Of a stretch of 64,000 nt of DNA, positions 18,563 to 58,382 are shown one piece after another. Every line of letters starts with the position of its first letter. Positions within the stretch are counted from its first letter, which is position 1. Both the position numbers and the translations under genes were made by a program. Origin of the DNA: a virus. The notes beneath the pieces were generated by a model. That model was not told the origin of the DNA, searched no databases, and saw only the letters and a list, made by a program, of their open reading frames with translations. Where the stretch lies: the IMG/VR virus record IMGVR_UViG_3300029133_000263; one strand, written 5' to 3'.

Positions 18563-18590
18563 TTGACGAAACTTGCGAACGGCATACAAT
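18563..18590 (+). promoter_or_regulatory. family promoter (TTGACG-N16-TACAAT, spacer ACTTGCGAAC)
   Basis: read directly. Confidence 0.55.
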
Positions 18591-18681
18591 AAGTGTTGTA
18601 CGACAGATAATAAACCGGCATCAACCATTCATAATCTGACAAATTCAGACAGGCACCAATCGGGTGACCTGTCTTTTTTTG
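18591..18681 (+). ncRNA. short promoter-proximal transcript / leader ending in an intrinsic terminator (starts TGTACGACAGATAA)
   Basis: GACAGGCACC..GGTGACCTGTC hairpin plus T8 at 18648-18681; homologous to the 58269-58382 leader. Confidence 0.4.
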
Positions 18682-18720
18682 TTGCAAGACCGCGTAATGC
18701 GGAGAAAGTCGAGGAAAGCT

Positions 18721-19071
18721 ATGAACACCATTATGAACACCGCCGAATTCATCCGCGTTACCGACCTCCTGAAGAAGGAGAAAATTGCCAAAAATAGCGG
18801 CAACATATTTGCCGCTATGATGGCGATGCGCGAGAACCGCCCCGAAGCAATCTGCGCAGATGGCTTTAAGATGTCTATCCAGGCATCCGAAGACCACTAC
18901 TGCCAGAAGGACGACGAGGGGAGCTACGTGAGCGTAGAAGTCGGGTTCCCGTCTCCGTCCGAGCCATTGCTCGACGAATATGGTGATGACGGAGTGTACG
19001 GCTATGTGCCGCTCACTGTTGTCGATGCCATCATCGCCAAGCACGGTGGAATCCTGCTCGATGAGCAGTAA
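18721..19071 (+). CDS. small conserved protein, paralogue of 59189-59515
   Basis: shared motifs EAICADGF.MSIQAS..HYC ... YVP..VVDAI.AKHGGI in both copies. Confidence 0.55.
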   Translation: MNTIMNTAEFIRVTDLLKKEKIAKNSGNIFAAMMAMRENRPEAICADGFKMSIQASEDHYCQKDDEGSYVSVEVGFPSPSEPLLDEYGDDGVYGYVPLTVVDAIIAKHGGILLDEQ

Positions 19072-19220
19072 GCCACTCTATCCAATTCCAGCATGACATT
19101 CGGCTGCACGCCGTTTGTTCATATATGAAGCGGTTATCATTTCTCTTAATGAGAGCAAAAATGATAGCTGCTATTTTTATTTTACAAGCCTCGAAAATAC
19201 GAGGAGAAAGAGAGTTTGCT

Positions 19221-19919
19221 ATGAACACCAACACTATCACTATCAATTCCAAGAAAGCTATCCCCGGCATCAATGATGTGGCTACTAAGTGCCCTGCAGC
19301 AGCCAACATGTGGGGCAGCAAAAACGCTTGCTCTCCAAATGAGGTATCTGCAGGCAACAACAAAATGGCATGGTTTGTCTGCCCCGATTGCAAACAGGAG
19401 TTTAAGGCTCCCGTTTGCAACGTCGTCAATTCTTTGTTGCATGACAATACCGGTTGCCCTGTTTGTGCAGGTCGCAAAGCTGTTTTCGGCGTCAACGATT
19501 TGGCGACCATGTATCCAAAAGCCGCTGCTATGTGGAGCGGCAAGAACGATTACGCCCCCAGCGAAATTCCTGCTCGGTCGTCCAGACGCGCAATTTTTGC
19601 GTGCCCCGATTGCAAACAAGAGTTTGTGACAAGCGTCCACAACATGACGCGGGCTATTGCATCCGGTGTTACTTGCTGCCCCAATTGCAGAATGCGAGGA
19701 AATACTATCGGTGCGATTTACAAGGATGAGTATGGTTCGCCAAAATCTGTTGGCACTACGATGACGATGAAGGACGGCAGCAAAGCCACCTGCACCGCTT
19801 ATCATGGTGTCAACAACATCACCGTCGAGTTCGAAGACGGGTTCGTTCTGTACCATGCTCGCTGGAATCAGTTTATCCGTGGCGTTCTTCACCACGGTCA
19901 GAAAACCACTGAAGAATAA
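19221..19919 (+). CDS. zinc-ribbon repeat protein (three GxNDLAT...AAMWS...CPDCKxEF units)
   Basis: repeated CxxC-containing units; paralogue of the next gene; conserved 5' leader. Confidence 0.6.
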   Translation: MNTNTITINSKKAIPGINDVATKCPAAANMWGSKNACSPNEVSAGNNKMAWFVCPDCKQEFKAPVCNVVNSLLHDNTGCPVCAGRKAVFGVNDLATMYPKAAAMWSGKNDYAPSEIPARSSRRAIFACPDCKQEFVTSVHNMTRAIASGVTCCPNCRMRGNTIGAIYKDEYGSPKSVGTTMTMKDGSKATCTAYHGVNNITVEFEDGFVLYHARWNQFIRGVLHHGQKTTEE

Positions 19920-20048
19920 TAAAAAGCCATCTGATACGAAGTTGGCTTGTGAATGTGAATGTAGCAGCTATCATCTTCCTCCAGTAGGGGGATGGTCGCT
20001 GCTTTTTTATTACAAGCCTCGAATGTTACGAGGAGAAAGAGAAAAATT

Positions 20049-21608
20049 ATGAATGCTTTTATGAATGTTATGCACACCACCACCTGCAACTGCACTGCTT
20101 GCACGACTGTTCCGACTCTTGGCATTAAGATGCCGTATGAGGAAGAGGAAAAGAAAGCTACTAAAACTAGAAAGACTCGCCAAAAACTGATTGTTGGAGA
20201 AAACGATTTGGCTACGGTCGCTCCTGAAGTTGCCGCAATGCTGAGTGAGAAAGATAAGCACTTTGCTTTTGAAGTTACTGCTGGAAGCAACAGGAAACTT
20301 ACTTTTGTCTGCCCTGACTGCAAGAAAGAGTTTGAGGCTAAAATTTGCAGTGTCACAATAGCAGTTTGCCCATGTCCTTATTGCCGCAAAGTAAAAAAAG
20401 CGCGTCGCAATCCGAAACCTATTGTTGGAGTTAATGATTTGGCTTCGCAATGCCCGCAGGCTGTAGCAATGTGGAGTGAAAAGAATAAATGCTACCCAAC
20501 AGAAGTTTTCGCCCAAAGCACTAAGACTGCAATTTTCAATTGCCCAAAATGTAAGCACGAATTTGAGACGACTGTCACATCCTTTGTGAAAAGCATCAAA
20601 AAATCGAAAGGCAATACTACTGGCTGCCCTATCTGTAATGGGACTAAAGTTGTTGTTGGCTACAATGATTTAGCTACGACCTGCCCCCAAGTAGCTGCTA
20701 TGTTAAGCAAAAAAAACGCTGACTTTGCAACAAAGTACACTATGGGAAGCAATGCGGTTGCAAGTTTTACTTGTCCTGATTGCAAAAAAGAGTTTGAGGC
20801 TAAAATTTGCAAAGTCACAAATGTAGTTTACCCATGTCCTTATTGCCGCGATACGAAAATTCTCGCTAATCATATGGATTTGGAAACTTACTTAAAGAAA
20901 AATAATCGAGAGGATATTCTTAACTGTATTCGTCCAGATAGTCCGTATCAGGCAAGTGAAGTTTCTTATTCCAGCAACAAAACATTATTTCTTAATTGCC
21001 CTGAATGTGGTAATAAATGGGTGATTTCAGCCAATTATCTGACTGCACAAGGCATTAGTTATATGTGTGGTAATTGTAATCAAACGACAAATTTTATTTC
21101 CAAGCCAGAGCAGTATGCTGTTCGTATTGCAATGGGTTTTGCAAGGGAAAACGGAGTTCCAAATGCATTCGATGAAGTTCGTCACATTTTTGGCTATAAC
21201 AACAAATATGGTGTAGATTTTGTCGATAACACTCGCAAGGTTTGCATGGAGTACAATGGTGTATATTGGCATAAAGACAAAAAAAGAGTTGATTGCTATA
21301 AATTCATCAAAATCCATAATGCCGGATATACTTTTATTCGTATACTGGAACCGGGCTTAAAAGCTTTTGACAAAAAATATGACATTGTATTGCCAAAAAA
21401 CTACAAACACGGTAACGAGTATGAATCAAAAATCATGGAGGACCTTGGCTATAAGCTTATTTCTTTATTTGAGGAAATCTATAATTACAAGGCCACTCCT
21501 GAAATTCAAAAATTAGTCGATTTTAAAGAATTCGAAAAGTGGTACGATATTCATCGCAAAAGAATTTCTGCAAAAGCTACCGAAAACGCAGCAAAGAAAG
21601 CTGCCTGA
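20049..21608 (+). CDS. zinc-ribbon repeat protein with C-terminal Vsr/PD-(D/E)xK-like endonuclease-fold domain
   Basis: four zinc-ribbon units; C-terminal FDEV..FGYNNKYGVDFVD...EYNGVYWHKDKK..D resembles very-short-patch-repair-like endonuclease domains. Confidence 0.55.
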   Translation: MNAFMNVMHTTTCNCTACTTVPTLGIKMPYEEEEKKATKTRKTRQKLIVGENDLATVAPEVAAMLSEKDKHFAFEVTAGSNRKLTFVCPDCKKEFEAKICSVTIAVCPCPYCRKVKKARRNPKPIVGVNDLASQCPQAVAMWSEKNKCYPTEVFAQSTKTAIFNCPKCKHEFETTVTSFVKSIKKSKGNTTGCPICNGTKVVVGYNDLATTCPQVAAMLSKKNADFATKYTMGSNAVASFTCPDCKKEFEAKICKVTNVVYPCPYCRDTKILANHMDLETYLKKNNREDILNCIRPDSPYQASEVSYSSNKTLFLNCPECGNKWVISANYLTAQGISYMCGNCNQTTNFISKPEQYAVRIAMGFARENGVPNAFDEVRHIFGYNNKYGVDFVDNTRKVCMEYNGVYWHKDKKRVDCYKFIKIHNAGYTFIRILEPGLKAFDKKYDIVLPKNYKHGNEYESKIMEDLGYKLISLFEEIYNYKATPEIQKLVDFKEFEKWYDIHRKRISAKATENAAKKAA

Positions 21609-21663
21609 TAGATTACAAGACCTCTGACGTATCAGTCGTCTTTTTACATAGATAGCGTTTCCT

Positions 21664-21703
21664 GCCGTTCACCCATAACCGGGTGGGCGGCTTTTTCTTT
21701 TGC
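21664..21703 (+). terminator. intrinsic terminator
   Basis: GCCGTTCACCC..GGGTGGGCGGC followed by TTTTTCTTTT. Confidence 0.55.
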
Positions 21704-21832
21704 CAACTACTTGCCATACGTCAATTTCATGCATGAATTACAAAATAGTAACCGTTCCATACAACCGCTGGCGATAACTACCAGTTGTAGTGTATTTGAT
21801 TGGACTTCCAAATTCTATTTTAGTCGCACATA

Positions 21833-21861
21833 TTGCAACTTACGGTTGTATTTGCTATACT
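21833..21861 (+). promoter_or_regulatory. sigma-70-type promoter TTGCAA-N17-TATACT, followed by three phased ATAACAAC repeats (21863-21901)
   Basis: read directly. Confidence 0.5.
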
Positions 21862-21935
21862 AATAACAACCGATAACAACCAACGAAGCACAAATAACAA
21901 CTAATAGGTGTTACCGCGAACCGAGGAGGCCAATC

Positions 21936-24745: not shown

Positions 24746-24773
24746 TCGACATTCGGTGCGAATCGTATATAAT
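24746..24773 (+). promoter_or_regulatory. family promoter (TCGACA-N16-TATAAT, spacer TTCGGTGCGAATCGTA)
   Basis: read directly. Confidence 0.55.
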
Positions 24774-24846
24774 CTAAATAATAAAACAGTATAGGAATAT
24801 AGCTAAGCCGCCAAGCGAGTGAAATCGTTTGGTGGCTTTTCTTTTT
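24774..24846 (+). ncRNA. short promoter-proximal transcript ending in an intrinsic terminator (AGCCGCCAA..TTGGTGGCT + T-run)
   Basis: no ORF; promoter + hairpin + T-run. Confidence 0.4.
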
Positions 24847-24869: not shown

Positions 24870-24950
24870 CTTGTCATGAGCTTGTTGCATACTTGCTACG
24901 AACTTGCTAAAAACTTGCTAAGCACTTGCTACGCTTCACCTCGAAGCAAG
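24870..24950 (+). repeat. six tandem 11-bp iterons CTTG(T/C)(T/C)A.... plus one inverted copy (GCAAGTT at 24944-24950)
   Basis: cttgtcatgag / cttgttgcata / cttgctacgaa / cttgctaaaaa / cttgctaagca / cttgctacgct. Confidence 0.7.
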
Positions 24951-30614: not shown

Positions 30615-30642
30615 CTTGCGCCGCTGTGCGAACTTCGTACAA
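30615..30642 (+). promoter_or_regulatory. family promoter (TTGCGC-N16-TACAAT, spacer CGCTGTGCGAACTTCG)
   Basis: read directly. Confidence 0.55.
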
Positions 30643-30781
30643 TAAGAATTGTACAAGAGAAACGGCAAGAGACATTTGTAGTGATTGTAGTTGGTCGCCA
30701 CGAATCGATGCCGTGTCTGCTTGCGCATAATTACCTCTTTTCGAAGCCCACAGGTCATTCTCTCACCTGTGGGTTTTGTTT
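30643..30781 (+). ncRNA. promoter-proximal transcript ending in a terminator (CCCACAGGT..ACCTGTGGG + TTTTGTTT)
   Basis: no convincing ORF. Confidence 0.4.
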
Positions 30782-30782
30782 A

Positions 30783-30810
30783 TTGCGGAATCGTGCGAAT
30801 TGCAGACAAT
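30783..30810 (+). promoter_or_regulatory. family promoter (TTGCGG-N16-GACAAT, spacer AATCGTGCGAATTGCA)
   Basis: read directly; followed by a ~390-nt leader. Confidence 0.55.
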
Positions 30811-31198
30811 TAAAGACAGAGCGATTGTGAGATGGGGCGATACCGATGCAGTAGGAATGAGAATCTTAGCAGCTAAAAGAGTCAACAACCCCGCCTAAAC
30901 CGGTTCGCCGGTTATAGACGGGGCTTGCGGGGCAACCTGTAAGCCCAGTTGATTAGCCTAAGCCCATTGCTCCGGCAGTGGGGAAAACTACGTTGTGTAC
31001 TAATAATATAGGCACCTTATCCATGCTCCACAAGTGGTGAGCTCTGCAGGCGTTTCGTTAAACATCTCCGAGGGGAGGAGAAGTGCGAGCGTCATGTCGA
31101 AAGGCTAAAACAGTGCATAACATTGGCGAAGTGGACCACAGGACGCAAGTCCTGACTTATAGTTTTATTACTATTTTACGAATGGAGAAACAAAAATT

Positions 31199-32842
31199 AT
31201 GGTATATGTGATTGCGATTGTGGCAGCCCTGATTATTCTCTTTGGATTTCTCTGCTACAAGAAAGCTCCGCCCACGGAGGCTATCGTTGTGACCGGCTTT
31301 GGTCTGTCTAAGCCTAAAGTAGTTTGCGGAAAAGGTACATTTGTTCTGCCCGTTCTTCAGCGGGCTGACCGGCTAAATATGCGCCTTCTGAAAATTGACG
31401 TCAAAACTCCTGAAACAGGTGTTAAGACGAAGAACGGCGTAAGTCTCTGGATTGACTCTGTTGTCACGATTCAAGTCTACAGCGAAAACTCTACCGTTCT
31501 GGATGAAGAAGTGAAGGCATCCGGTCTGAAAGACGCCAAGGCGTACATCATGTCCCGCCAACAGGCAGCCATCTCGAACTTTCTGGGCATGAACGAGCAG
31601 GGCATCAATGAGAAAGTTAATGACGTTCTGCAGGGCAATTTGCGTGAGATTGTCTCTGACATGACCGTCGACCAAATTCTGACGAACCGCAAGCAGATGG
31701 CTGTGAGCGTTATCGAGAATGCTCGCCCCGACCTTGCTAAGATGGGACTTGAGGTCGTGACTTTTAACGTCCAGGATATCAGGGATGCGGTGGATGTTCA
31801 GGGCCACAACCACGGCGTCATTGAGGCTATCGGCATTGAACAGGAAGAGCTTGTGAAAAAACAGGCTGAAATTGCCCGTGCTCAGGCTGCCCGTGATGTA
31901 GCCTGCGCGAAGGCCGATGCTGAGATGGCTGCAAATGCCAAGGAAGTTGAAGCGCAGACTGCGATTGCAAAACGCAACAATGAATTGCAGCTCGCCAAGG
32001 CAAAGCTGAAAGCTGAAGCTGATAAAGCTGCGGCTGACGCAGATGCTGCCGGTCAGATTCAGATGAATCTCCGCGCCAAAGAAATCAAAGAAGCGGAAGC
32101 GGATGCTGAAATCGCCAAGCAGAAGAAAATGGTAGACCTTGCCGCACAGGAAGCCGAGGTCCAGCAACGCAAACTGGATGCGGAAGTCCGCAAACAGGCA
32201 GATGCTGACCTGTACCGCCGCCAGAAAGAGGCAGAAGCCAAGAAATATGAGGCGGAACGTGCAGCTGAGGCACAGAAGTTCTCCAAGCAGCAGGAAGCAG
32301 AAGGCATTGAACTTGTCGGTAAGGCAGAAGCTGAAGCGATTCGTCAGAAAGGCTTGGCTGAAGCGGAAGCCATGAAACAGAAAGCAGAGGCATATAAGCA
32401 GTATAACGATGCGGCTGTGGCTGAAATGCTCATCAAGGTTCTTCCTGACATTGCCAAAAGCGTGGCTCAGCCTTTGTCCAGCATTGATAAGGTTTCTATC
32501 ATTGGCGGTGACGCCTCCGGCGTATCCGGCGTTTCCGGGAACGTTCCTATCCTGATGGCTCAAACCATGCAGACGGTGAAAGAAGCGACCGGAATCGACA
32601 TGGGCGAAATTGTCCGTGCCAACAGCATCCAGGCAAAGACCGACCGCAACATCAACATCATGAATCAAGGCGAACAGCCTGTGAATAGTGAAAAGGAAGG
32701 AGGTGTCAATGCTATGGAACGCGTAGAAGGCGGCTATCTAATTCATGAGAAGCGTCTCAACGGTGAGGAAGTCACTCATTTTCGACCGGATGTGACCGAA
32801 GAAGAGAAGGCTATCATGAAAGACAAAAAGGCCAAAGATTAA
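31199..32842 (+). CDS. SPFH/band-7 flotillin-like membrane protein with long Ala/Glu/Lys coiled coil
   Basis: N-terminal TM, SPFH-like region, long heptad-rich AEAKAEA segment; 547 aa. Confidence 0.75.
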   Translation: MVYVIAIVAALIILFGFLCYKKAPPTEAIVVTGFGLSKPKVVCGKGTFVLPVLQRADRLNMRLLKIDVKTPETGVKTKNGVSLWIDSVVTIQVYSENSTVLDEEVKASGLKDAKAYIMSRQQAAISNFLGMNEQGINEKVNDVLQGNLREIVSDMTVDQILTNRKQMAVSVIENARPDLAKMGLEVVTFNVQDIRDAVDVQGHNHGVIEAIGIEQEELVKKQAEIARAQAARDVACAKADAEMAANAKEVEAQTAIAKRNNELQLAKAKLKAEADKAAADADAAGQIQMNLRAKEIKEAEADAEIAKQKKMVDLAAQEAEVQQRKLDAEVRKQADADLYRRQKEAEAKKYEAERAAEAQKFSKQQEAEGIELVGKAEAEAIRQKGLAEAEAMKQKAEAYKQYNDAAVAEMLIKVLPDIAKSVAQPLSSIDKVSIIGGDASGVSGVSGNVPILMAQTMQTVKEATGIDMGEIVRANSIQAKTDRNINIMNQGEQPVNSEKEGGVNAMERVEGGYLIHEKRLNGEEVTHFRPDVTEEEKAIMKDKKAKD

Positions 32843-33867: not shown

Positions 33868-35562
33868 GTGACAAAAAAGAACATTTTCCCTGTGGTTGCA
33901 ACCATTGCTGTGGTAGGCGTTGTTCTCGGAGTATTTTCGATGACGGTGATGAGGGACTCAAACGTCAGCATTAGTACAATGACGTCCGAGCAGGCATATG
34001 CCAACTTGAGCAGCAAGATGAAGCGCATCGGCGTGCAGGAGGTCAAGGTCAATCCTCAGCAGCTGGATGTCTCTGAATTCCTTGATGCAAAGGATGAACT
34101 GCCCGACATTGAATCCTCCTACCCATTCGTGGTCGTAGGAAACGGAGATGTGAACATCGAAATCTTTTCCTCTGGCGAGAAAGCAGCAGAGTCCGGCTCA
34201 GATTCTTTCCTGACCGAAATGGCAAAGAAGTTCAACGCCCAGCACAACAAGACTTCCGGAGACAAGACTATGAGTGTCTCCCTGCGCTCCATTCCGTCCG
34301 GTACGGCGGCTGAGTACATCTCGACGGGAAAGTATCAGCCCGAGTGCTATACCCCCTCAAATACGCTCTTTGGCGAGCTGGTGAAGAACGAGGGCGTAGA
34401 ATTGACCGTTGAGGCTGACCGTCTGGTCGGCAATGTGGCGGGTATTCTCGTATCAAAGAAGACAGGGGATATGCTTCGCTCTGAATACGGTGAAGCGTCT
34501 GTTTCTTCCGTTCTGAACGCAACCATCGATGGCAAACTCATGATGGGATACTCGAACCCCTACACAAGTGCTACGGGTCTTAATTTTCTGCTTGAGGCTC
34601 TTGCGAGCAGCGGCAGCGATACGATTGTCGATACGGCTGCTGTTGAGAATTTCCAGAAATTTCAAGCGAACGTCCCTCTCGTATCCTTCACGACCCAGCA
34701 GATGGTCCAGTCGGCAGACAAGGGCATCGTGGACGGCGTTGTCATGGAGTATCAGTCTTATCAGAATGACCCGACCTTACAGCGCAACTACGAGTTCATC
34801 CCGTTCGGTGTACGGCACGATAATCCTCTGTATTCCATCGGGAATGTCTCTGCGGAGAAGAAGGAAGTTATTGCTGCCTTCGTTTCCTTCTGCGCTCAGA
34901 ACCAGGCAGAGGCGACCAAGGACGGATTCAATGGTCTTGACGACTATGCTTATACAGGCAAGGCATACGATGGCAACACCATCGCACAGGCTCAGAGTGT
35001 CTGGAAAGAAGAGAAGGACTCAGGCATTCCTATTGTGGCAGAGTTCGTTGTCGATACTTCCGGCTCGATGCGCGGCGAACCCCTGAATGCCCTGAAAACC
35101 GCGATGATAAACACCATCCAGTATATCAATGACGACAACTATATCGGCATCATTGGCTTTGATTCAGATGTCAGGGAATACCTGCCCATTAACCAGTTCT
35201 CTCTGACCCAGAAAACTCTGTATAAGGGTGCCGTGAACTCCCTCGATGCGAACGGCAGCACCGCAATGTACAACGGTCTTTGCGTTGCTATGGACCGCAT
35301 CTACCAGAAATCTCAGGAACTGGGTGGGAATTGCACGCCCATCATCTTTGTGCTCACGGACGGTGACAACAATACCGGATATGGCTTCTCCGATACGAAG
35401 AACATCATTGCCGGTATGGATATCCCTATCTATACCATCAGCTACAACTACGCAGCGGATAGTCTTTCGGAGCTCGCTTCCATCAACGAAGCGGCAGCTA
35501 TCGTCGGCAACAGCGAGGATATCACCTACAAGCTCCGCAACCTGTTTAACGCAGAGATGTAA
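33868..35562 (+). CDS. membrane-anchored von Willebrand factor A (vWA) domain protein
   Basis: GTG start with AAAGGAGA RBS; N-terminal TM; C-terminal MIDAS motif DTSGSM...NGSTAM...TDGDNNTGY. Confidence 0.7.
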   Translation: MTKKNIFPVVATIAVVGVVLGVFSMTVMRDSNVSISTMTSEQAYANLSSKMKRIGVQEVKVNPQQLDVSEFLDAKDELPDIESSYPFVVVGNGDVNIEIFSSGEKAAESGSDSFLTEMAKKFNAQHNKTSGDKTMSVSLRSIPSGTAAEYISTGKYQPECYTPSNTLFGELVKNEGVELTVEADRLVGNVAGILVSKKTGDMLRSEYGEASVSSVLNATIDGKLMMGYSNPYTSATGLNFLLEALASSGSDTIVDTAAVENFQKFQANVPLVSFTTQQMVQSADKGIVDGVVMEYQSYQNDPTLQRNYEFIPFGVRHDNPLYSIGNVSAEKKEVIAAFVSFCAQNQAEATKDGFNGLDDYAYTGKAYDGNTIAQAQSVWKEEKDSGIPIVAEFVVDTSGSMRGEPLNALKTAMINTIQYINDDNYIGIIGFDSDVREYLPINQFSLTQKTLYKGAVNSLDANGSTAMYNGLCVAMDRIYQKSQELGGNCTPIIFVLTDGDNNTGYGFSDTKNIIAGMDIPIYTISYNYAADSLSELASINEAAAIVGNSEDITYKLRNLFNAEM

Positions 35563-35681
35563 CTCAAAAGCGCGGTTTTGTCCGCGCAGCTGCTCCAAAA
35601 GACAGCCTCCACGCGGCGAGCAGCGGGCAACGGGAGACAGTCCCGGCAAATTGTCTTTGAGACGGAAGGAAGAAGTGCCCT

Positions 35682-36584: not shown

Positions 36585-36713
36585 ATGAAAGACTACGGCA
36601 ACGGCTATTCCATTGAGGAGCTTGCCGCAAAATACAGGTTGAGCGTCCGTACATGCTATCGAGCGTTAGACGACGCGAAACAGGAGGCCAGTACAAGGTT
36701 ATCCAGCGAGTGA
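36585..36713 (+). CDS. small HTH protein (42 aa; sigma-70 region-4-like / HTH_23-like)
   Basis: YSIEELAAKYRLSVRTCYRAL motif. Confidence 0.4.
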   Translation: MKDYGNGYSIEELAAKYRLSVRTCYRALDDAKQEASTRLSSE

Positions 36714-40489: not shown

Positions 40490-40546
40490 GCAGCATTTTC
40501 CCGCGTGAGTGATAGCGCTCATGCGGGAATTTTTTGTAATTTTCTA

Positions 40547-40574
40547 TTGCTAATCTGTGCGAATTGCGTACAAT
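40547..40574 (+). promoter_or_regulatory. family promoter (TTGCTA-N16-TACAAT, spacer ATCTGTGCGAATTGCG)
   Basis: read directly. Confidence 0.6.
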
Positions 40575-40644
40575 AGCAAATATAAAGTAGAAGTATATCG
40601 AATCGCTGCCCCGCATGAATTGCTTGTGCGGGGCTTTTTGTTTG
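40575..40644 (+). ncRNA. ~60-nt leader ending in an intrinsic terminator (GCCCCGCA..TGCGGGGC + T-run)
   Basis: promoter-proximal hairpin + U-tract directly before the 40659 gene. Confidence 0.4.
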
Positions 40645-46235: not shown

Positions 46236-46472
46236 GGTGTACTCCTTTCAAATATGTCATTAGGTGTACAATGCTGTCATCTTCTGTAATTATAATAGCA
46301 CATCCCGCACCAAAAAGCAAGCAAGAATTTACAATAAATGACAAGAAAATACACGAGATGACATATTTGAGTGTGACGGCTGATTTTTGAGTCTTTCCTG
46401 TTCAGCAGCGGAACAAGCCTTGTGCGTCTTGTCTATGCCATGACTTTGCCACTGTTTTGCCACAGTTTTGCC

Positions 46473-46500
46473 TTGTGCATCCGTGCAAATTGAATATTAT
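46473..46500 (+). promoter_or_regulatory. family promoter (TTGTGC-N16-TATTAT, spacer ATCCGTGCAAATTGAA)
   Basis: read directly. Confidence 0.55.
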
Positions 46501-46560
46501 TGTAAATATAGGATGAATCAGTGTGAGCTGCAGAGATTAGGAATTCTGCGGCTCTTTCTT
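46501..46560 (+). ncRNA. ~58-nt transcript ending in a terminator (GAGCTGCAGAG..TCTGCGGCTC + T-run); tandem copy 1
   Basis: starts AAATATAGGA; no ORF. Confidence 0.4.
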
Positions 46561-46688
46561 ATGTGGCCCCTAAAAGTCGTGATAAATGCACGCGTGCGTT
46601 CTAAAAATGTGTGCGTGCGTTTTTTGTGTATTTTCACGCATTTATCGCTCGTTATTTGTGTGGGGTAGTGTTTTGCCATAATTTTGCC

Positions 46689-46716
46689 TTGTGCATCCGT
46701 GCGAATTAAATATGAT
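46689..46716 (+). promoter_or_regulatory. family promoter (TTGTGC-N16-TATGAT, spacer ATCCGTGCGAATTAAA)
   Basis: read directly. Confidence 0.55.
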
Positions 46717-46779
46717 AAGAAATATAAGATAAATAAGTGTGAGCCGTAGAGATTGAGTTTCTGCGGCTCCTTTCTTTTG
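46717..46779 (+). ncRNA. ~60-nt transcript ending in a terminator; tandem copy 2, followed by a second hairpin terminator at 46784-46821
   Basis: GAGCCGTAGAG..CTGCGGCTC + T-run. Confidence 0.4.
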
Positions 46780-46825
46780 TGGTCCCCATGCGGATGAAAA
46801 TGTCTGCGTGGGGTTTTTTTTAATT

Positions 46826-48016
46826 ATGGAATACTTGTATAAGCAATATAACAACGAACCCGGGAAAGCTCCGACAGGAGAAAAATATATATACGTTATT
46901 ACTGAAATAGAAACAGGAAAAATGTATATAGGACAAACCAGTAATTTCCACGCTCGTATGCGTTCGCATAGAACCTGCAAGTGCAACCAACATAGCGCAA
47001 TTGATAGAGCTATTCAAGAAAAAGGTGCGGACGCATTCCAATATGAGATTTTAGAGTTGTGTGCTGCTGATGACGCTGATAGCAGAGAACGATATTGGAT
47101 AGAAAAATCCGATTCTTGCAATGAACAAAAAGGTTTCAATACGTTTAAGGGCGGCCAAAAGAGTTTTTCAGATGAAAACTACTCTATGCTTGTAGAAATG
47201 CTTCAGCAAGGAATGACATTAAAGACTGCGTGTGACGCTATAAATACCTCTATTGCTTCTGCAAGGAGAGAATTGAAGAGGCGAGACACAAATTTGTCGG
47301 AAATCCGCTGTTCGGCAGCCGAACATAAATATCTGCGCCGCAAAAGCACTCTCGGAAAAGAAATCAATATAGCTGACGTACTGAAAATGTATCAAAATGG
47401 CATGTCATCGAAAGAAATAGCAGAGCACTATGGTATGAACTCATCCGCTTTTTATCGCCGGTTAAAAGAAAATGGGTTGAGCGCCAGAGCAATTGCTCAG
47501 CCAAATTACGGAACAGCATCTGCTCTTTTCGACAAAGATAAAGCTATTGCAATGTGTAAAGACGGATATTCTGCCAGCGAGATAGGCGATGCTATGGGAT
47601 TGCCGTATTACACAATAGAGAGGCTTCTTCGAAAGTCTGGATATTCTATATCATTGATTGCAGATGAAGAAGCAGCAGATAAAAGAAAGAAGCGAAACAA
47701 AAAACGAAGCCAAAATGGAAACTTCAATTTTGAAATGGCCGTTGATTTTTTAAGAGAAGGTTACAAGATACAAGCGATAGCTGATTTGATGGGCATATCA
47801 GATGCTCACCTAAGAACAAAGCTCAAACAAAACGGCTTTGATTTAGAAAAAACGCTTCCAATTATAGTCTGTGACGAAACGGGCGAAACGTTTCTTACAA
47901 TGATAGAAGCGGCAAAAGCGTACAACGTAAGCTATACATCACTACGGAAATGTTTTGAAAAAAAGCAGGGTTACTGTGGCGGCTACCATTGGCACAAAGA
48001 AAAGCAGAATTTTTGA
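46826..48016 (+). CDS. GIY-YIG nuclease domain protein with three HTH repeats and NUMOD-like C-terminus (homing-endonuclease-like)
   Basis: KYIYVITEIETGKMYIGQT...R..H GIY-YIG motif; repeated (Y/M)..G.S..EI......S...Y.RL..NG units. Confidence 0.65.
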   Translation: MEYLYKQYNNEPGKAPTGEKYIYVITEIETGKMYIGQTSNFHARMRSHRTCKCNQHSAIDRAIQEKGADAFQYEILELCAADDADSRERYWIEKSDSCNEQKGFNTFKGGQKSFSDENYSMLVEMLQQGMTLKTACDAINTSIASARRELKRRDTNLSEIRCSAAEHKYLRRKSTLGKEINIADVLKMYQNGMSSKEIAEHYGMNSSAFYRRLKENGLSARAIAQPNYGTASALFDKDKAIAMCKDGYSASEIGDAMGLPYYTIERLLRKSGYSISLIADEEAADKRKKRNKKRSQNGNFNFEMAVDFLREGYKIQAIADLMGISDAHLRTKLKQNGFDLEKTLPIIVCDETGETFLTMIEAAKAYNVSYTSLRKCFEKKQGYCGGYHWHKEKQNF

Positions 48017-51231: not shown

Positions 51232-51348
51232 AGCGGAACACCAACGACAACAACCATCAAGGTTGTACAAGATTATGCGCTCATCCGCAAAATGCGGGTG
51301 GGCGTTCTTTTTTTGCAAAAAAACAAAAATAAAACATAGCAAAAAACC

Positions 51349-51376
51349 TTGCACATCTGTGCGAATCAGATATAAT
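51349..51376 (+). promoter_or_regulatory. family promoter (TTGCAC-N16-TATAAT, spacer ATCTGTGCGAATCAGA)
   Basis: read directly. Confidence 0.6.
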
Positions 51377-51444
51377 AACCCTAATAAGATAAGAATTGTG
51401 CCCTGGCGGCTTCTGAATTGGATGCTGCCGGGGCATTTTGTTTG
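51377..51444 (+). ncRNA. ~60-nt leader ending in a terminator (GCCCTGGCGGC..GCTGCCGGGGC + ATTTTGTTTG) directly before the helicase gene
   Basis: hairpin with two G-U pairs followed by a U-tract. Confidence 0.4.
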
Positions 51445-54182: not shown

Positions 54183-54336
54183 TTATTACTGCCGATGAGA
54201 GGAGGTGTATCAAGCGCAGCTTCAGGACGTTGCACGTTGTTTTCCAACACAAATAAAATCACAAATCGGAAAATCCTTCTGAATATCACATAACAAATAT
54301 CAGACATATGCCCACATAGGCAGAAAGGAATTACAG

Positions 54337-55203
54337 ATGGGACGCTATAATTTTAATCAGAGGACTCGGGACGGCTACGAAATCTCGCCCGAACAGGCGG
54401 CAAGATGGCTTGAAAGAAACGACAATAATCGAAACGTCAACGTCGCTAAAGTCAAAAAGATGGCAAAGGACATGAGAGAAGGGCATTGGGATACAACGCA
54501 TCAGGGTATTGCCATCGCCTCCGATGGTACGCTGGTCGATGGACAGCACCGGCTGCTTGCTATCGTTGAATCCGGTGTGACCGTGCGTATGAACGTGACC
54601 TTTAATGCCGCCAAGTCTCAGCACATCGATTCCGGAAACATCCGCTCCATGGCAAATCGCGTGCAGATGTCTGAGTACGATATGAGCTGGACAAACAATA
54701 CGATTCTCTCCGCAGCAAATCTCATTGGCCGCGTATTCACGGGTTCCAACCTCAGTCACGAGGAAGCCTTGAGTGAATGGCTGATGAAATACCGCACGCA
54801 AATCGAATCTGCCACCAAATGCATCAAGAAGGCTACGCTGCCGGGACTCAATTCTGCAGGCACAACAGCCGCTATCATTGTAGCCGCCATGAACGATGTC
54901 CCCGCCATCTACATTGAGAAATTCATGGACGTGTTCTATTCTGGATTCACCAACAACGAAGCCGAGCATTATGCTATCACGCTGCGGGACGAACTGCTGC
55001 GCGAAAACCGTGTCAAGCGCGGCACACAGTATGCAAGGTTTGCCTTTTTCCGTACTGCCAATCGCCTGAACCAGTATTACAAGACTGCCACCGGGCAGCG
55101 GGTTGCCAAGCGTGTCAACAATGGGGATTTTCCGTACAACGTCTATGACGCAAACGGCGGAATCGTAAAGCCCGAAACCAAGAAAACCAAGAAGGCTGTG
55201 TAA
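54337..55203 (+). CDS. ParB N-terminal domain (ParB/Srx-fold) nuclease-like protein
   Basis: LVDGQHRLLAI motif typical of ParBc-like domains. Confidence 0.55.
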   Translation: MGRYNFNQRTRDGYEISPEQAARWLERNDNNRNVNVAKVKKMAKDMREGHWDTTHQGIAIASDGTLVDGQHRLLAIVESGVTVRMNVTFNAAKSQHIDSGNIRSMANRVQMSEYDMSWTNNTILSAANLIGRVFTGSNLSHEEALSEWLMKYRTQIESATKCIKKATLPGLNSAGTTAAIIVAAMNDVPAIYIEKFMDVFYSGFTNNEAEHYAITLRDELLRENRVKRGTQYARFAFFRTANRLNQYYKTATGQRVAKRVNNGDFPYNVYDANGGIVKPETKKTKKAV

Positions 55204-55313
55204 TTTCAAAATGGCTTGAATCTTTGAGGTTGTATATATGTTGCAAAGTTCAGATACAACCCCAAAAATTCCGATAAATCGCATAAAAGATTGTTGCAAG
55301 GAGGACAAAAACC

Positions 55314-55589
55314 ATGAATAAGTTTGAAGCAAGGAGCACGCTGGGGAGCGAGGCTGTCCCGGTTTTCGACGATGACGGTGAGCTCACAGAATGGCTGCAC
55401 CGGGACAACTATACTGTCGAGGAATTGGAACTGATGAACTTTGTCGGCAATGAAAAGCCCGTCATCAAAAAGGACGGTGTGAAAATCATCCGGGATGGCA
55501 CGGTCATTCGGAGAACCAACACTGAAACAAGAAAAACTGAATTTCTGTTCATTCCGCGCATTGTCGTCGATGAGCAGAAAACCGTGTGA
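55314..55589 (+). CDS. hypothetical small protein
   Basis: AGGAGGACAAAAACC RBS. Confidence 0.45.
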   Translation: MNKFEARSTLGSEAVPVFDDDGELTEWLHRDNYTVEELELMNFVGNEKPVIKKDGVKIIRDGTVIRRTNTETRKTEFLFIPRIVVDEQKTV

Positions 55590-55879
55590 GGTGCAGCGTG
55601 GTAAAAATTTACGGGTCGAGTGATGACCTTGTCTGCCTGGATAATTCCAACTATGGGGTCGATGAAATTGGTTGCTTCGATGTCAAGGGAGTTCGGCTAT
55701 TTCTGGACGACGACACCATTTTGGTAGTGCGCTATACGAACGGTATCTGGCGCATCGAAATCGAGCGAAAAGGCACGGCACCGTATCAACGCACGGTTTG
55801 TCCTGGCGATGATGAGGACGATTATAGCGATGTGTTTTGTACGGAGTCCGATATCATCGCACATGAAATCATTCGATAA
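55586..55879 (+). CDS. hypothetical small acidic protein (GTG start; 55586 or 55598)
   Basis: ORF coupled to the previous gene. Confidence 0.35.
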   Translation: MRCSVVKIYGSSDDLVCLDNSNYGVDEIGCFDVKGVRLFLDDDTILVVRYTNGIWRIEIERKGTAPYQRTVCPGDDEDDYSDVFCTESDIIAHEIIR

Positions 55880-55893
55880 GGATTGGAGTAGCC

Positions 55894-56559
55894 ATGGCAA
55901 AAACTCTTCTGACTCAAAAAATAGAATCAGCGCTAAAGGTTTGGCATCCTGCCAACTATGGTGGATACCGGGTTGATTCGTTCCGTCAAGGCTTCGACGC
56001 TCTGGAAGTACCTGTCGAGTGTGGCTCGATAAAATCCGGCCTTGTTGACTTCGTTCGGGTTCAAGAGTGCTTCACATCAGAAACAAAATGTGGGACCTGC
56101 AAGCTGTCGATGTACAAAGACGAAGACAAAGACTTAGTTATGCCGTCCATCCAACAATGGACGCAGGAAGTGTCATGCCCTAAAGACATCTCCAGCTGGA
56201 ATTTTCGAAACGAACCCTGCACGGAACGGTTCTGCAGGCTGTACAAAACGAAACATACATACACCATCGACACTGTCATCACCTGTGTGGAAATCAAAGT
56301 TTCGGTAGGGGATTTTCATTCTGACCACGGCCACAACTTTGTAGGGCACTGCAACTACTACGCAATGCCGTTAGCGTTGTATAAGAAAGTGAAAGACGAG
56401 ATTCCTGACGGCATAGGCGTTTTGATTCATTATGACGGCGAAAACGCCTGCGGAATTCGCAAGAAAGTGGAGTGCAAGCCTCATCAGCTTTCAGAAGAAA
56501 GCCAAAAATGGCTCATCATGTCGGTTGCGAAACGGCTTGCAAAAGCAAGTGGAAGTTGA
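55894..56559 (+). CDS. hypothetical protein, possible PD-(D/E)xK nuclease fold
   Basis: D...EIK arrangement (VDFVRV ... CVEIKVSVGDF); many Cys/His. Confidence 0.4.
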   Translation: MAKTLLTQKIESALKVWHPANYGGYRVDSFRQGFDALEVPVECGSIKSGLVDFVRVQECFTSETKCGTCKLSMYKDEDKDLVMPSIQQWTQEVSCPKDISSWNFRNEPCTERFCRLYKTKHTYTIDTVITCVEIKVSVGDFHSDHGHNFVGHCNYYAMPLALYKKVKDEIPDGIGVLIHYDGENACGIRKKVECKPHQLSEESQKWLIMSVAKRLAKASGS

Positions 56560-56707
56560 GCATTTCTTAATTTGAAAAAGGAGAAAGTAATGAGAAAGTT
56601 TCTAAAGTTAATTGTTATCGCATTTTTGGCAGGATTCGCTATTTTCTGGTATGCTGAAACCCGAAAGCGCCGAACACTGATTCCGCTTGAATTCCGAGGC
56701 GAATGAA

Positions 56708-56920
56708 ATGCGGCAAAACATTAAAATTCTACTGGAAACCATCTGGTATCTGGTTCTGCCGGTGTTTATTTTTGTACTTAACATTAGATACTGGCATGGA
56801 TATCTTGCGAATCCTGGCTGGTCCTTGACCCATCCGTCATATGTTGTTCTTGGATTTGTCTTGAGCGCTGCGTTGTGCTTTGAGATTGTATATATCGACA
56901 TCAAGTTTGGGGAAAAATAG
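56708..56920 (+). CDS. small membrane protein
   Basis: two TM helices; a possible 39-aa membrane peptide ORF lies at 56590-56709. Confidence 0.35.
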   Translation: MRQNIKILLETIWYLVLPVFIFVLNIRYWHGYLANPGWSLTHPSYVVLGFVLSAALCFEIVYIDIKFGEK

Positions 56921-57061
56921 CGCTTGCTATATTATTCGATTTCGGTAAAATATAAAATGTAAACAGATACTAAGAACCAGTAGGATTCACAATCTGTATG
57001 TTTAGCGGACTTATCCCATCGTGGGGTAGGTCCGCTTTTTTTGTTGAAAGGAGAAGAATTC

Positions 57062-58222
57062 ATGAAAATCAAAAACAAGCTTTTACGGAGTACAGCGGCA
57101 ATCATCGCTGCACTCTTTGCACTCAGCTTCACCGGCTGCGGTCAGAGTCCGATAACCTCGGAAAGTCCATCCAGCACCGGGGTCGTCTCAGAAAGCACTG
57201 CAAGCAGTGAACAGACGGCTGGCGGTTCGGTGGACGGCAGCTTTACTATTCACTTTTTAGACGTAGGACAGGCGGATTCAGCTCTTATCACCTGCGACGG
57301 CCACTCAATGCTGATTGATGGCGGCAATGTAGATGATTCTAACCTCTTATATTCTGTCATGCAGCGTGAAACCGATGGGCACCTGGATTATGTCGTTGGG
57401 ACTCACGCGCACGAAGACCACATCGGCGGCTTGTCTGGTGCTTTTGAAGCCGTTACTGCGGACATGACTCTATGCCCTGTGACAGAATACGACAGCAAAG
57501 CATTTCGGAACTTTGCAAGCTACGCGGAACAAAAAGGCGGAGGCATCACGATACCGGATGTGGGTGAAACCTACACTCTGGGGGAAGCGAAATTCACGAT
57601 AGTTGGTGTTAATTCTGTTCCCGATGATACGAACAATGCATCAATTGTTCTGCGCATCGTTTATGGGAATACTTCGTTCCTCTTTACTGGTGATGCTGAA
57701 CAGGAAGCCGAAAATGTGATACTTGCATCGGGACAAGACATTCAGTCAACGGTTCTGAAAGTAGGTCATCACGGTTCAAGCACATCTACCTCAGAGGCTT
57801 TTCTGGACGCAGTGAATCCGACCTATGCTGTGATTTCCTGTGGAGCAGGGAACAGCTATGGCCATCCGCATCAGGAAACACTCGACAAGCTGCAAAACAA
57901 AGGTGTTGAGGTTTATCGTACAGACCTGCTGGGCGATATCTATTGTACATCGGATGGCAAAGAGGTAAGTTTCACTACCGGAGAATATCATGATGAGAAT
58001 CGGATTGAAGCCGGTTCTGCTGCAGAGTCCAATGATGAACAAAACAGCAGACCTCTTGTAATAGACAAAACATACGTTCTGAACACAAGTACCATGAAGT
58101 TTCACAGGCCCGATTGTTCTGCAGTCGAATCGATGAGCCAGAAGAATAGAATCGACTATATGGGTTCACGTGACGAGCTCATCCAGGAAGGGTATTCGGC
58201 GTGCGGGATTTGCAAACCATAA
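57062..58222 (+). CDS. MBL-fold metallo-hydrolase lipoprotein (ComEC C-terminal-domain-like) with C-terminal Cys4/His metal-binding tail
   Basis: lipobox FTGC; GTHAHEDHIGG (HxHxDH); C-terminal FHRPDC...CGICKP. Confidence 0.65.
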   Translation: MKIKNKLLRSTAAIIAALFALSFTGCGQSPITSESPSSTGVVSESTASSEQTAGGSVDGSFTIHFLDVGQADSALITCDGHSMLIDGGNVDDSNLLYSVMQRETDGHLDYVVGTHAHEDHIGGLSGAFEAVTADMTLCPVTEYDSKAFRNFASYAEQKGGGITIPDVGETYTLGEAKFTIVGVNSVPDDTNNASIVLRIVYGNTSFLFTGDAEQEAENVILASGQDIQSTVLKVGHHGSSTSTSEAFLDAVNPTYAVISCGAGNSYGHPHQETLDKLQNKGVEVYRTDLLGDIYCTSDGKEVSFTTGEYHDENRIEAGSAAESNDEQNSRPLVIDKTYVLNTSTMKFHRPDCSAVESMSQKNRIDYMGSRDELIQEGYSACGICKP

Positions 58223-58240
58223 AAATTGCACCTGATTTAC

Positions 58241-58268
58241 TCGACAAGCTGTGCGAACTGACTACAAT
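58241..58268 (+). promoter_or_regulatory. family promoter (TCGACA-N16-TACAAT, spacer AGCTGTGCGAACTGAC)
   Basis: read directly. Confidence 0.55.
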
Positions 58269-58382
58269 AAAAAATGTACGATAGATAACAAACATCGAAA
58301 AAGGCATTCTGCCTTTCGTACAATTCACAATTCTGCAGACATAAGGCAGACTCACCGTCTTGGTGGGCCTGCCTTTTTTGTT
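58269..58382 (+). ncRNA. ~110-nt leader ending in a terminator (GGCAGACTCACC..GGTGGGCCTGCC + T-run); homologous to 18591-18681
   Basis: shared TGTACGAYAGATAA start and ATTCAYAATYTG core. Confidence 0.4.

Follow-up and report, generated by a model that had tools for sequence, protein, structure and literature searches.

Predicted intrinsic-terminator hairpins of full strength sit in the 5' leaders of accessory operons in conjugative elements of gut Clostridia. They are part of a module that heads many unrelated cargo operons in a large family of these elements and that comprises, in order, an upstream terminator (T_up, often present), a sigma-A-type promoter with TGCGAA in its spacer, a leader and a terminator. 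As read from the sequences, the cargo genes are probably kept off until some factor permits RNA polymerase to read through. The best explanation, to which we give a probability of about 40%, is that a trans-acting factor gates these operons by a form of processive antitermination that is loaded at the promoter, as with lambda Q and Pseudomonas AlpA.

The window, a stretch of 64,000 nt, comes from a large conjugative element of uncultured gut Clostridia. A sequence-only reading had listed eight hairpins with T tracts, and all eight were recovered in place by terminator scans, direct reading and RNA folds. Their distance from the -10, given there as 55-130 nt, was approximately right: the hairpins begin 22-102 nt 3' of the -10 and the T tracts end 60-143 nt past the hexamer. 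Three further sites were found, namely second hairpins at 46584-46622 and 46784-46813 and a new unit at 56924-57046, and a leader terminator is present behind nine of the 15 family promoters of the window (Table 1). The hairpins are GC-rich, fold with energies between -16 and -28 kcal/mol and run straight into a T-rich tail (U tract in the RNA), the sequence hallmark of an intrinsic terminator. Whole-leader folds reach z-scores of -1.9 to -7.8, whereas family leaders devoid of a hairpin stay above -1.1. The 11 leader hairpins are indistinguishable in strength from the 14 gene-end terminators of the window (dG -20.7 vs -19.7 kcal/mol, tail score 4.76 vs 4.42). The stretches that run from a family -10 to the following gene make up 20% of the intergenic DNA but contain 11 of its 24 strong + strand terminators (binomial P = 0.004).

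Table 1. Promoters, leaders and terminators of the module family in the window
Feature	Position	Strand	Remarks
T_up of the 18563 module	18516..18543	+	Terminator scan; kept together with the promoter in L001-L010 and IMG/VR loci
Family promoter TTGACG, 16 nt, TACAAT	18563..18590	+	TTGCGAA box in spacer
AGATA-type leader	18597..18684	+	Before ATG 18721; fold z -2.4; alignment A1; 5' box TGTACGACAGATAAT, linker ATTCATAAT, terminator hairpin 18647-18674 then T tract; covariance model R1 61 bits, E 7e-10
Family promoter TCGACA, 16 nt, TATAAT	24746..24773	+	
Orphan terminator hairpin adjoining promoter 24746 (empty cassette)	24805..24846	+	Scan, fold
Family promoter TTGCGC, TACAAT	30616..30643	+	TGCGAA in spacer
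K-type leader: long 5' hairpin, then terminator 30742-30778	30651..30786	+	Fold dG -49.9 kcal/mol, z -4.3; kept in L014 and L097; directly 5' of promoter 30784-30810
Family promoter without leader terminator, -10 GACAAT	30784..30810	+	Contrast class; drives HEARO RNA and flotillin operon
Other contrast-class promoters (TGCGAA box starts)	32976, 36485, 37421, 39837, 63556		
Family promoter TTGCTA, 16 nt, TACAAT	40547..40574	+	T_up at 40498-40529; -10-like hexamer TAAAGT at 40583-40588
Leader terminator	40608..40644	+	Scan, fold; 15 nt before ATG 40659 (66-aa membrane protein); compensatory variant GTCCCGC/GCGGGAC in L029 and others
Family promoter, first tandem copy	46473..46500	+	Tandem duplication 46453-46538 / 46669-46754, a family promoter in each copy
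Two leader terminators, 46525-46554 and 46584-46622	46525..46630	+	Each with T tract
Family promoter, second tandem copy	46689..46716	+	-10-like hexamer TAAGAT at 46725-46730
Tandem leader terminators, 46741-46769 and 46784-46813	46741..46821	+	Fold z -7.8; end 13 nt before ATG 46826; compensatory variant AAGCC/GGCTT; operon products GIY-YIG/HTH, EcoRI-like methylase, GmrSD_N, RlaP-like (Pfam)
Family promoter TTGCAC, TATAAT	51349..51376	+	TGCGAA in spacer; T_up at 51277-51305
Leader terminator	51398..51444	+	dG -28 kcal/mol; 18 nt before ATG 51462 (UvrD-like helicase); -10-like hexamer TAAGAT at 51385-51390
Promoter TTGCTA, 16 nt, TAAAAT	56924..56951	+	Without TGCGAA box
New AGATA-type leader, terminator 57004-57036	56958..57047	+	Before ATG 57063 (MBL-fold protein); R1 36 bits, E 4e-5
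Family promoter TCGACA, 16 nt, TACAAT	58241..58268	+	TGTGCGAA box
AGATA-type leader, terminator 58343-58375	58275..58384	+	Before ATG 58413; fold z -4.6; 5' box TGTACGATAGATAAC including -10-like TACGAT at 58277-58282, P1 hairpin, linker ATTCACAATT; R1 89 bits; 35 distinct relatives

The sharing of 5' leader sequence, proposed in the same reading, was found to be real for TGTACGAYAGATAA, which occurs at 18597 and 58275. It is less general for AAATATAGGA, assigned to four units: this sequence is exact at 46505 and 14959 only, with AAATATAAGA at 46721 and a partial match at 24780, and the 14957 unit has no terminator.

The leader terminators are conserved in related metagenomic contigs, which number in the hundreds and measure 25-390 kb. 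The refuting condition set by the sequence-only reading, hairpins that are not conserved in homologous elements, therefore does not hold: they are kept, with compensatory stem changes. Alignment of the leaders with covariance models recovered a conserved hairpin structure whose stem covaries. Among 19 distinct leaders, compensatory changes affect seven of the 10 pairs of the terminator stem, and 91.6% of the cells are paired; the covariation score is 0.60, compared to 0.30 in shuffles (none of 500 reaching 0.60) and 0.10-0.24 for slid partners. Leader types other than AGATA also keep their hairpins through compensatory changes. Invariant sequence blocks persist in the alignment while stems and the P1 hairpin diverge.

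Leaders of the same kind are found before at least 15 different, unrelated cargo ORFs, and one promoter occurs with differing downstream cassettes. The module is also the joint at which cargo cassettes are exchanged, with recombination breakpoints at or inside it, as in the hybrid leader of locus L164. A separate T_up is absent in 14 of 32 cases, so that the leader hairpin serves as terminator of the upstream operon as well (57004 and 58343 in the window), and the presence of T_up is independent of that of a leader terminator.

Gating is indicated by six units (those before 18721, 40659, 46826, 51462, 57063 and 58413), in which the 13-45 nt between T tract and start codon are promoter-free. 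The genes behind them are intact and conserved. As these six operons have no other promoter, their expression therefore needs terminator read-through. Four of these hairpins (before 40659, 46826, 51462 and 58413) had already been placed directly in front of genes, a correct list that lacked the 18648 hairpin before ATG 18721. The remaining units had been described as ending before the next promoter, which holds for those at 30651 and 46507, but these are upstream tandem promoters that feed the same operon as the promoter after them. Where terminators stand in tandem (46741 and 46784, or four in a row behind promoter 46473), a processive mechanism is required. Between the gated operons and the small RNA family that had been offered as alternatives, this logic and the comparison with relatives support the former, and the latter is not favoured as the main function. 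A self-contained RNA switch fits less well: no conserved antiterminator pairing was found in 16 leaders, the best pairings between linker and 5' arm being no stabler than with shuffled upstream segments. A riboswitch or classical attenuator was rejected, as these folds support no conserved alternative structure and the leaders match no Rfam family.

The layout of the promoters suggests what kind of factor might act. The lambda Q cassette consists of a promoter, a sigma-dependent pause element, a terminator and the downstream genes (PMC9388147), and the AlpA promoter carries the ABE GGGACG (-25 to -20) and, after a gap of 18 nt, CACGAT (-1 to +5), with terminator tB downstream (PMC9371919). The family promoters (TTGnnn, 16 nt, TAYAAT) hold an invariant (G)TGCGAA box, of a size that would suit a factor site, between -35 and -10, 5 nt 5' of the latter and at about -23 to -18 if the start site is correctly assumed. 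On the same assumption, an xACGAT hexamer lies just past the start. In terminator-bearing leaders, this -10-like hexamer (TACGAT, TAAGAT, AACGAT) occupies a single register that begins 9 nt after the -10 and 19 nt past the box; the sequence of a candidate pause element, as at Q/AlpA sites, is present at a fixed register. Its A2 and T6 occur together in 59% of terminator-bearing leaders and in 16% of terminator-less ones. The corresponding counts for TANNNT are 17 of 32 and six of 57 (Fisher 2e-5, a test that overstates independence as the leaders are mutually homologous), the strict motif being missing in the other 15 of 32. An intrinsic terminator lies between promoter and regulated genes, as in both known systems, and a short RNA would here too be the default product (PMC9371919, PMC9388147).

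This cis layout points to processive antitermination. By default, RNA polymerase from family promoters would stop after ~60-140 nt, leaving a short RNA and a silent operon. Read-through would be conferred by a trans-acting factor for which the spacer TGCGAA is the putative DNA site: the hexamer 19 nt 3' of the box would induce sigma-dependent pausing close to the promoter, the factor would load at this pause, and the modified polymerase would pass the leader terminator or terminators, tandem ones included. A single factor could turn on many cargo cassettes together.

Known Q-type systems have one or few target promoters and belong mainly to proteobacterial phages. Here, by contrast, dozens of candidate target promoters are present per element, and the carrier is a conjugative element of a Gram-positive Clostridia lineage instead of a lambdoid phage. 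The hexamer is ~3 nt farther from the -10, and its role as a pause element is predicted from sequence. The box is also found on promoters without hexamer or terminator, at least as conserved there, and the 56924 unit lacks it. The box, being on ungated promoters too, may be a plain repressor operator.

Searches of the window and of related loci totalling 1.7 Mb, which sample a part of each of these 200-390 kb elements, identified no protein resembling Q, AlpA, NusG or a sigma factor. In the window, Pfam, PHROGs and PDB sequence searches gave no match to a Q/AlpA-like protein. A NusG/LoaP paralogue, which the sequence-only reading had suggested looking for, did not appear: phmmer with NusG and RfaH gave no match at E <= 1 among 6607 ORF fragments from the window and 187 loci of partly sampled elements. 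A conAn-like system was not found in the window and sampled related loci either.

A rival account, on balance unlikely yet deserving real weight, takes the hairpins for constitutive attenuators or insulators: a fixed small leak would keep potentially toxic cargo very low and upstream read-through would be stopped, any regulation being exerted at initiation only, with TGCGAA as the operator. The presence of the box on all family promoters, terminator or not, agrees with this, as do the 14 of 32 leader hairpins that double as upstream-operon terminators, the failure to find an antiterminator gene in the window or sampled loci, and the use of a terminator as insulator in Tn916 (PMC11658703). Nevertheless, leader terminators are not weaker than gene-end ones and some are doubled, the independence of T_up from them fits poorly, and a passive damper needs neither invariant blocks nor a register-fixed hexamer. 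Alternatively, the units might have no selected function and be accidents of cassette shuffling, in which recombination joined promoters to terminators left over from the 3' ends of lost genes. Sequence comparison shows this for the 24806 unit: in L126 a helicase-like ORF remnant has the identical hairpin past its stop codon, and in L003/L004 promoter 24746 directly drives a Metallophos gene. As a general account it is very improbable, since leaders of the AGATA, G, H and I types are found again, together with their terminators, in numerous elements and ahead of numerous genes, with compensatory stem changes and conserved accessory blocks.

Two further readings centre on the leader. NusG-paralogue systems (RfaH/ops, LoaP, UpxY) use a short conserved 5'-leader element upstream of terminators in several operons, a layout that the module shares. 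In leader-specific antitermination through RNA or through a NusG paralogue (LoaP-, RfaH-, UpxY- or conAn-like), a protein would bind nascent RNA or non-template DNA at the invariant 5' box (U)GUACGAUAGAUAAC, at the linker AUUCAYAWU or at GCRGAC in the terminator 5' arm, so that the hairpin is blocked or polymerase made processive. The variable P1 hairpin is flanked by invariant blocks that it would bring together, the terminator 5' arm is conserved beyond pairing need (C80, G82, C84 in alignment A3), and AGATA in the first 28 nt tracks the terminator (23/28 vs 9/61). We nonetheless hold this improbable: the boxes are not common to all types (G, H and I have AAGATAA only or nothing), the 5' box occurs in terminator-less leaders as well, and phmmer gave no NusG/RfaH-like ORF among the 6607 fragments from the sampled loci. 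Moreover, the element is fixed at +2 to +16 of the promoter and not at a variable leader distance, a position more in keeping with an element tied to the DNA or to initiation than with an ops-like site. Distinctly improbable, too, is that the terminated 60-140-nt RNAs are themselves the product, acting in trans on mRNAs of the host or plasmid, with the conserved single-stranded 5' box and linker as seeds, and with downstream expression incidental. The arrangement of 5' hairpin, conserved single-stranded linker and Rho-independent terminator resembles that of an sRNA gene, several paralogous copies exist per element, and units 30651 and 46507 have no ORF directly after them. Against this, a cis role is unavoidable in the six units that are promoter-free between terminator and conserved operon, the stand-alone units are followed at once by another promoter that serves the same operon, Rfam gave no match, and a search of the window for complementary targets or antisense copies gave none.

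Other known arrangements share parts of the module. In the PeSL of T4-like phages, conserved promoter and stem-loop motifs flank ORFan genes and serve as homologous-recombination joints (PMC2839356, PMC4122927); the present module likewise flanks variable genes, with breakpoints at or inside it. The PeSL stem-loop, situated in the -35/-10 spacer or across the -10, stops upstream transcripts only (PMC2839356), whereas the hairpin and U tract described here lie in the transcribed leader of a conjugative plasmid-like replicon and necessarily affect transcripts that start at the module itself. Early terminators are also known in conjugative elements: conAn and the zipper-type cATT of pLS20, canT and the T1 insulator of Tn916 (PMC8191782, PMC13401043, PMC11658703). 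They similarly keep genes off or insulated until bypassed, but act once, at the head of a long conjugation operon, while many short independent cargo cassettes are each gated here. A leader of this kind is absent from the T4SS genes of the window. pLS20 and Tn916 use a large leader RNA or long zipper stem, and no zipper complementarity is supported in our leaders. A pLS20 zipper-type attenuator was rejected: P1 starts at the first transcribed bases, without a 5' flanking segment. P1 is missing in several leader types. An Frpo/ssi single-strand promoter, whose long ssDNA hairpin would pair -35 with -10, was also rejected, as both elements remain mostly unpaired when three of the promoter regions are folded as DNA.

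Even on a conservative reading, an uncatalogued conserved leader motif is defined, and the use of promoter/terminator cassettes as recombination joints is seen not to be confined to T4-like phages. Going further than promoter-loaded antitermination as such, we propose tentatively, and with some doubt, a regulon-scale Q/AlpA-type system in a Gram-positive conjugative megaplasmid, in which one plasmid-encoded factor would load at all of these promoters and turn on the entire accessory genome together. Dozens of cargo cassettes, probably for anti-defence or establishment, would each carry a qut-like promoter and one or two full-strength terminators, and the module would double as a recombination linker, so that cassettes are swapped with their control kept. 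If true, processive antitermination would be a modular, copy-and-paste control of the accessory genome, beyond a one-promoter phage switch, in very abundant, uncultured gut plasmids. It would explain how many potentially toxic nucleases, helicases and methylases are silently carried, yet jointly deployed, and the cis motif (box, 19 nt, hexamer, terminator) offers a search handle for a new antiterminator family in Firmicutes.

A motif search revealed 14 promoters of one family in the window, all on the plus strand and none on the minus strand. Each is composed of TTGnnn, a spacer, 5 nt and TAYAAT/GAYAAT, and an invariant box, (G)TGCGAA(TTGC), lies in the spacer; 89 distinct copies give the consensus gTTGC..AtctGTGCGAATTGCATACAAT. 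The eight promoter-proximal hairpin/T-tract sites listed in the sequence-only reading were all recovered by terminator scans and direct reading, and two second hairpins and a further unit were added. A leader terminator is found behind 9 of 15 promoters. Eleven of the 24 strong plus-strand terminators fall within the 20% of intergenic DNA that runs from a family -10 to the next gene (P = 0.004, computed against intergenic DNA only), and the hairpin leaders are far more stable than shuffles (z -1.9 to -7.8), unlike those behind the remaining family promoters. One promoter-leader unit is tandemly duplicated, so that a polymerase from the first copy has four terminator hairpins to pass before it reaches the ATG at 46826. 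To note, the leader 5' box TGTACGAT resembles the spacer box TGTGCGAA, the two forming a direct repeat 25 bp apart.

Positions of promoters, leaders, genes and RNAs in the window
Feature	Position	Remarks
Family promoter boxes	18574, 24757, 30627, 30794, 32976, 36485, 37421, 39837, 40558, 46484, 46700, 51360, 58252, 63556	plus strand
Tandem promoter-leader unit	46453-46538 / 46669-46754	216 bp apart, 85% identity
Added second hairpins	46584; 46784	
Added unit	56924-57046	
Covariance-model matches	58275-58384; 18597-18684; 56958-57047	last one new
Type IV secretion system	1-15,000	M23 peptidase, VirD4-type coupling protein, VirB4-like ATPase
Cargo-like genes	~15-64 kb	UmuC, YpsA, flotillin, VWA protein, ResIII helicase, NADAR, GIY-YIG/HTH, orphan EcoRI-like methylase, GmrSD_N, UvrD-like helicase, MBL-fold protein, radical-SAM protein
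~110-aa family, two paralogues	18721-19071; 59189-59515	
ACTTGCTA repeat array	24891-24931	11-bp period, 3.7 copies, then inverted copy
HEARO RNA	30881-31141, within 30877-31190	Rfam RF02033, 91 bits
Flotillin/SPFH gene	31199-32842	
VWA-domain gene	33868-35562	
HDV-like ribozyme	35589-35658	RF02682 'HDV-F-prausnitzii', 60 bits
Truncated triple-HTH gene	36585-36713	42 aa
DGQHR protein gene	54337-55203	288 aa

Two IMG/VR pattern scans provided 175 further loci which, together with the window, contain 89 distinct leaders behind TGCGAA promoters. All those starting with (T)GTACGATAGATA(A/C)C have a hairpin and T tract at their end, at +50 to +110. In the alignment of the AGATA-type leaders, 19 distinct versions share a near-invariant 5' box, a linker ATTCAYAWT and the terminator stem. 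This stem exhibits compensatory substitutions in 7 of its 10 pairs, with 91.6% of cells paired, and its covariation score reaches 0.60, as compared to 0.30 when shuffled (0/500 reach 0.60) and 0.10-0.24 for slid partners. The hairpins first noticed in a single sequence are thus conserved in homologous elements, with compensatory changes. In nine types, 5' box and linker are separated by a 5'-terminal hairpin, P1, which is variable and has UGUACG:CGUACA as its closing pairs (z -1.6 to -4.0); it is absent from the shorter types. A covariance model built from the alignment finds three sites in the window, and conservation extends to the other leader types (40608; 46525/46741; 51398), two of which show compensatory changes. 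Rfam, searched at the gathering threshold for the whole window and at an E-value threshold for one leader, returned only the HEARO RNA and the HDV-like ribozyme listed above and nothing on the leaders, and leader blastn against sequenced plasmids yielded chance matches only and no similar leader. A ~110-aa protein family (motif CADGF..SIQAS...YGYVP..VDA..AKHGGI; two paralogues in the window, another in the related locus L127) recurs directly behind AGATA-type leaders. In several related loci (L033:8600-8800, L042 and L149), the 250-400-nt UTR between leader terminator and next ORF is occupied by a further conserved non-coding segment (for example CAGCACGTACACGCTGCGTTAATGCG ... GCCGCGTACCGCCGCGATAGTGCATTAGAATATA), possibly a structured RNA as well, which is absent from the window.

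The T tracts of six units stop 13-45 nt short of a start codon; the genes that follow are intact and conserved, and include the operon of a 906-aa helicase and a second operon with five genes. As this leaves no room for a promoter after the T tract, these genes are expressible only by terminator read-through. The operon behind the 51398 leader terminator includes a 288-aa protein devoid of Pfam match, in which a ParB-N-like DGQHR motif is visible by eye. A cis antiterminator, in which the linker pairs with the terminator 5' arm, looked convincing by eye (UCUGC:GCAGA versus UUCGCUU:GGGCGGA, with small, seemingly covarying hairpins) until the shuffled control: across 16 leaders it does no better than shuffled upstream sequence. 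A zipper-type attenuator is impossible, since the leaders lack a 5' partner segment. With no built-in switch supported, two options are left for read-through, a constant leak or one conferred in trans. For the 5' box and linker, neither antisense nor target copies turned up in the window. Other candidates were discarded: the fold of an Frpo-like ssDNA promoter was not seen in three promoter regions; a second promoter using TGCGAA as -35 and the leader hexamer described below as -10 would have a spacing of 19-20 nt, too long, and no extended -10; the mini-ORF AUG UAC GAU AGA UAA exists in the window copy only, with UUG or CUG elsewhere. The TGCGAA box also calls to mind the Spo0A box TGNCGAA, an idea only, as the two differ by one base in length.

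In the terminator-bearing leaders, a -10-like hexamer begins at a constant register, namely 9 nt after the -10 hexamer and 19 nt downstream of the TGCGAA box: TAAGAT (7), TACGAT (7), AACGAT, AACAAT, TACGAC and others. This register is common to leader types that are otherwise unalignable. A2 and T6 occur together in 59% of terminator-bearing leaders versus 16% of those without terminator, and TANNNT in 17/32 versus 6/57 (Fisher 2e-5), although the leaders are related by descent and hence not independent. The Pseudomonas aeruginosa factor AlpA binds between -35 and -10, to a 6-bp element at -25 to -20; it depends on a -10-like CACGAT at -1 to +5 (18-nt gap) to bring about a sigma-dependent pause, and then takes RNA polymerase past the terminator tB, which lies just downstream (PMC9371919). 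The lambdoid Q cassette likewise comprises a promoter, a sigma-dependent pause element and a terminator ahead of the downstream genes, and without Q the polymerase pauses and terminates (PMC9388147). With assumed leader start sites, the cis anatomy agrees with lambda Q/AlpA on all three points: spacer box as a candidate factor site, putative pause hexamer and downstream terminator. This layout suggests that the leader terminators would be default-off gates at the promoters, opened in trans, most likely by a promoter-loaded candidate factor of the Q/AlpA type (probability about 0.4). The doubled terminators fit a processive mechanism.

Pfam and other searches of the window proteins, and of related loci, found no Q/AlpA candidate protein, and a PDB sequence search with four proteins of 197-212 aa without known function was negative. 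In related elements, the gene behind promoter 36485 codes for a 147-aa protein that has three short HTH repeats (Pfam Mor/HTH_23; L005:17302-17745). In the window it is truncated by a 276-bp internal deletion and a frameshift, making it an unlikely factor, or at least a non-functional one here.

The module is, judging from the loci compared, portable and a recombination joint. At least 15 different ORFs follow the same leader types; in the hybrid leader of locus L164, P1 comes from one type and the terminator from another, the two meeting in the conserved linker; and the upstream cassettes of the 18563 module differ immediately 5' of its upstream terminator. Such upstream terminators accompany 55/88 promoters, independently of the presence of a leader terminator. 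Promoter 24746 is followed by a hairpin in the window and by an RBS and Metallophos gene in L003/L004, with a breakpoint ~10 nt after the -10. In L126, the 24806 hairpin lies after the stop codon of an ORF remnant, which makes this unit an 'empty cassette' in which a promoter has been joined to a lost gene's terminator, and a recombination scar among the sites proposed as gates or small RNAs. This shuffling parallels that of the PeSL cassettes of T4-like phages, but the PeSL stem-loop is inside the promoter, while here the hairpin is transcribed. Just after the orphan terminator of unit 24806, the ACTTGCTA array varies from ~2 to 5 copies among otherwise identical loci and looks like a protein-binding iteron or centromere-like site.

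That all leader hairpins are pure by-products of such shuffling, as shown for unit 24806, is the least probable explanation. The sequence-only reading had left the choice between gated operons and small RNAs: the absence of a promoter between T tract and gene in six units favors the former and makes small RNA genes hardly probable, the more so as the 'stand-alone' units 30651 and 46507 serve the same operons as tandem promoters further upstream. RNA- or NusG-type leader-specific antitermination is quite improbable; phmmer searches of ORF fragments with NusG, RfaH and RpoE were negative in the window and sampled related loci, and the suggested NusG/LoaP paralogue did not turn up there.

Constitutive attenuation or insulation is unlikely, albeit with some points in its favor: the TGCGAA box is equally conserved on promoters without hexamer and terminator, 29/31 promoters with a GACAAT or GATAAT -10 are ungated, and the box may be an ordinary operator. 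Against it, the leader terminators are indistinguishable from the operon-end terminators of the window in hairpin energy and T-tract score.

Because the window encodes a type IV secretion system, its gene content argues for a conjugative plasmid-like element, contrary to its viral listing; no virion genes were seen in it. A matching contig has a pilin and a RecD2-like helicase immediately upstream. From ~15 kb to 64 kb, nearly all genes are on the plus strand and have the appearance of cargo with accessory or anti-defence roles; one window gene has a homologue annotated as AcrVA2-like. The HEARO RNA, of the IscB/IsrB omega-RNA family, lies in the flotillin 5' UTR with no adjoining IscB ORF; it is a ~315-nt insertion, as L014 has the same family promoter and leader joined directly to the flotillin RBS. 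RRXRR/IscB-like and TnpB genes occur elsewhere in related loci. The HDV-like ribozyme directly follows the VWA-domain gene, and the variant leader of L044 (about 187-640) contains a sequence that looks similar by eye.

The 116-aa product of 18721-19071 has exact copies in 1741 blocks of the assembly collection, on 200-300-kb contigs from human-gut metagenomes. A genome-contig scan with VirD4 matched a single MAG contig (224 kb, 83% identity, labelled 'Clostridiales bacterium'); the UvrD-like helicase gave no match. Many related contigs of 25-390 kb are entered as viral in IMG/VR; long contigs of the family include IMGVR_UViG_3300045988_181067 (389 kb) and DYBQ01000001.1 (224 kb), and one relative was binned as a separate 'genome', HRGM_Genome_2451. 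The nearest sequenced plasmids are large ones of Subdoligranulum and Vescimonas (Oscillospiraceae), with VirB4 identity of ~38%; 25 kb of the window had no megablast match in phage and plasmid collections, and the promoter family is absent from 42 kb examined of the Vescimonas plasmid pMM35_02, a cultured relative. Leader terminators, antitermination and shuffling cassettes of promoter and terminator each belong to known kinds; the novelty lies in combining them into a multiplied and portable module that has its own uncatalogued leader motif and is carried by an uncultured, abundant gut element.
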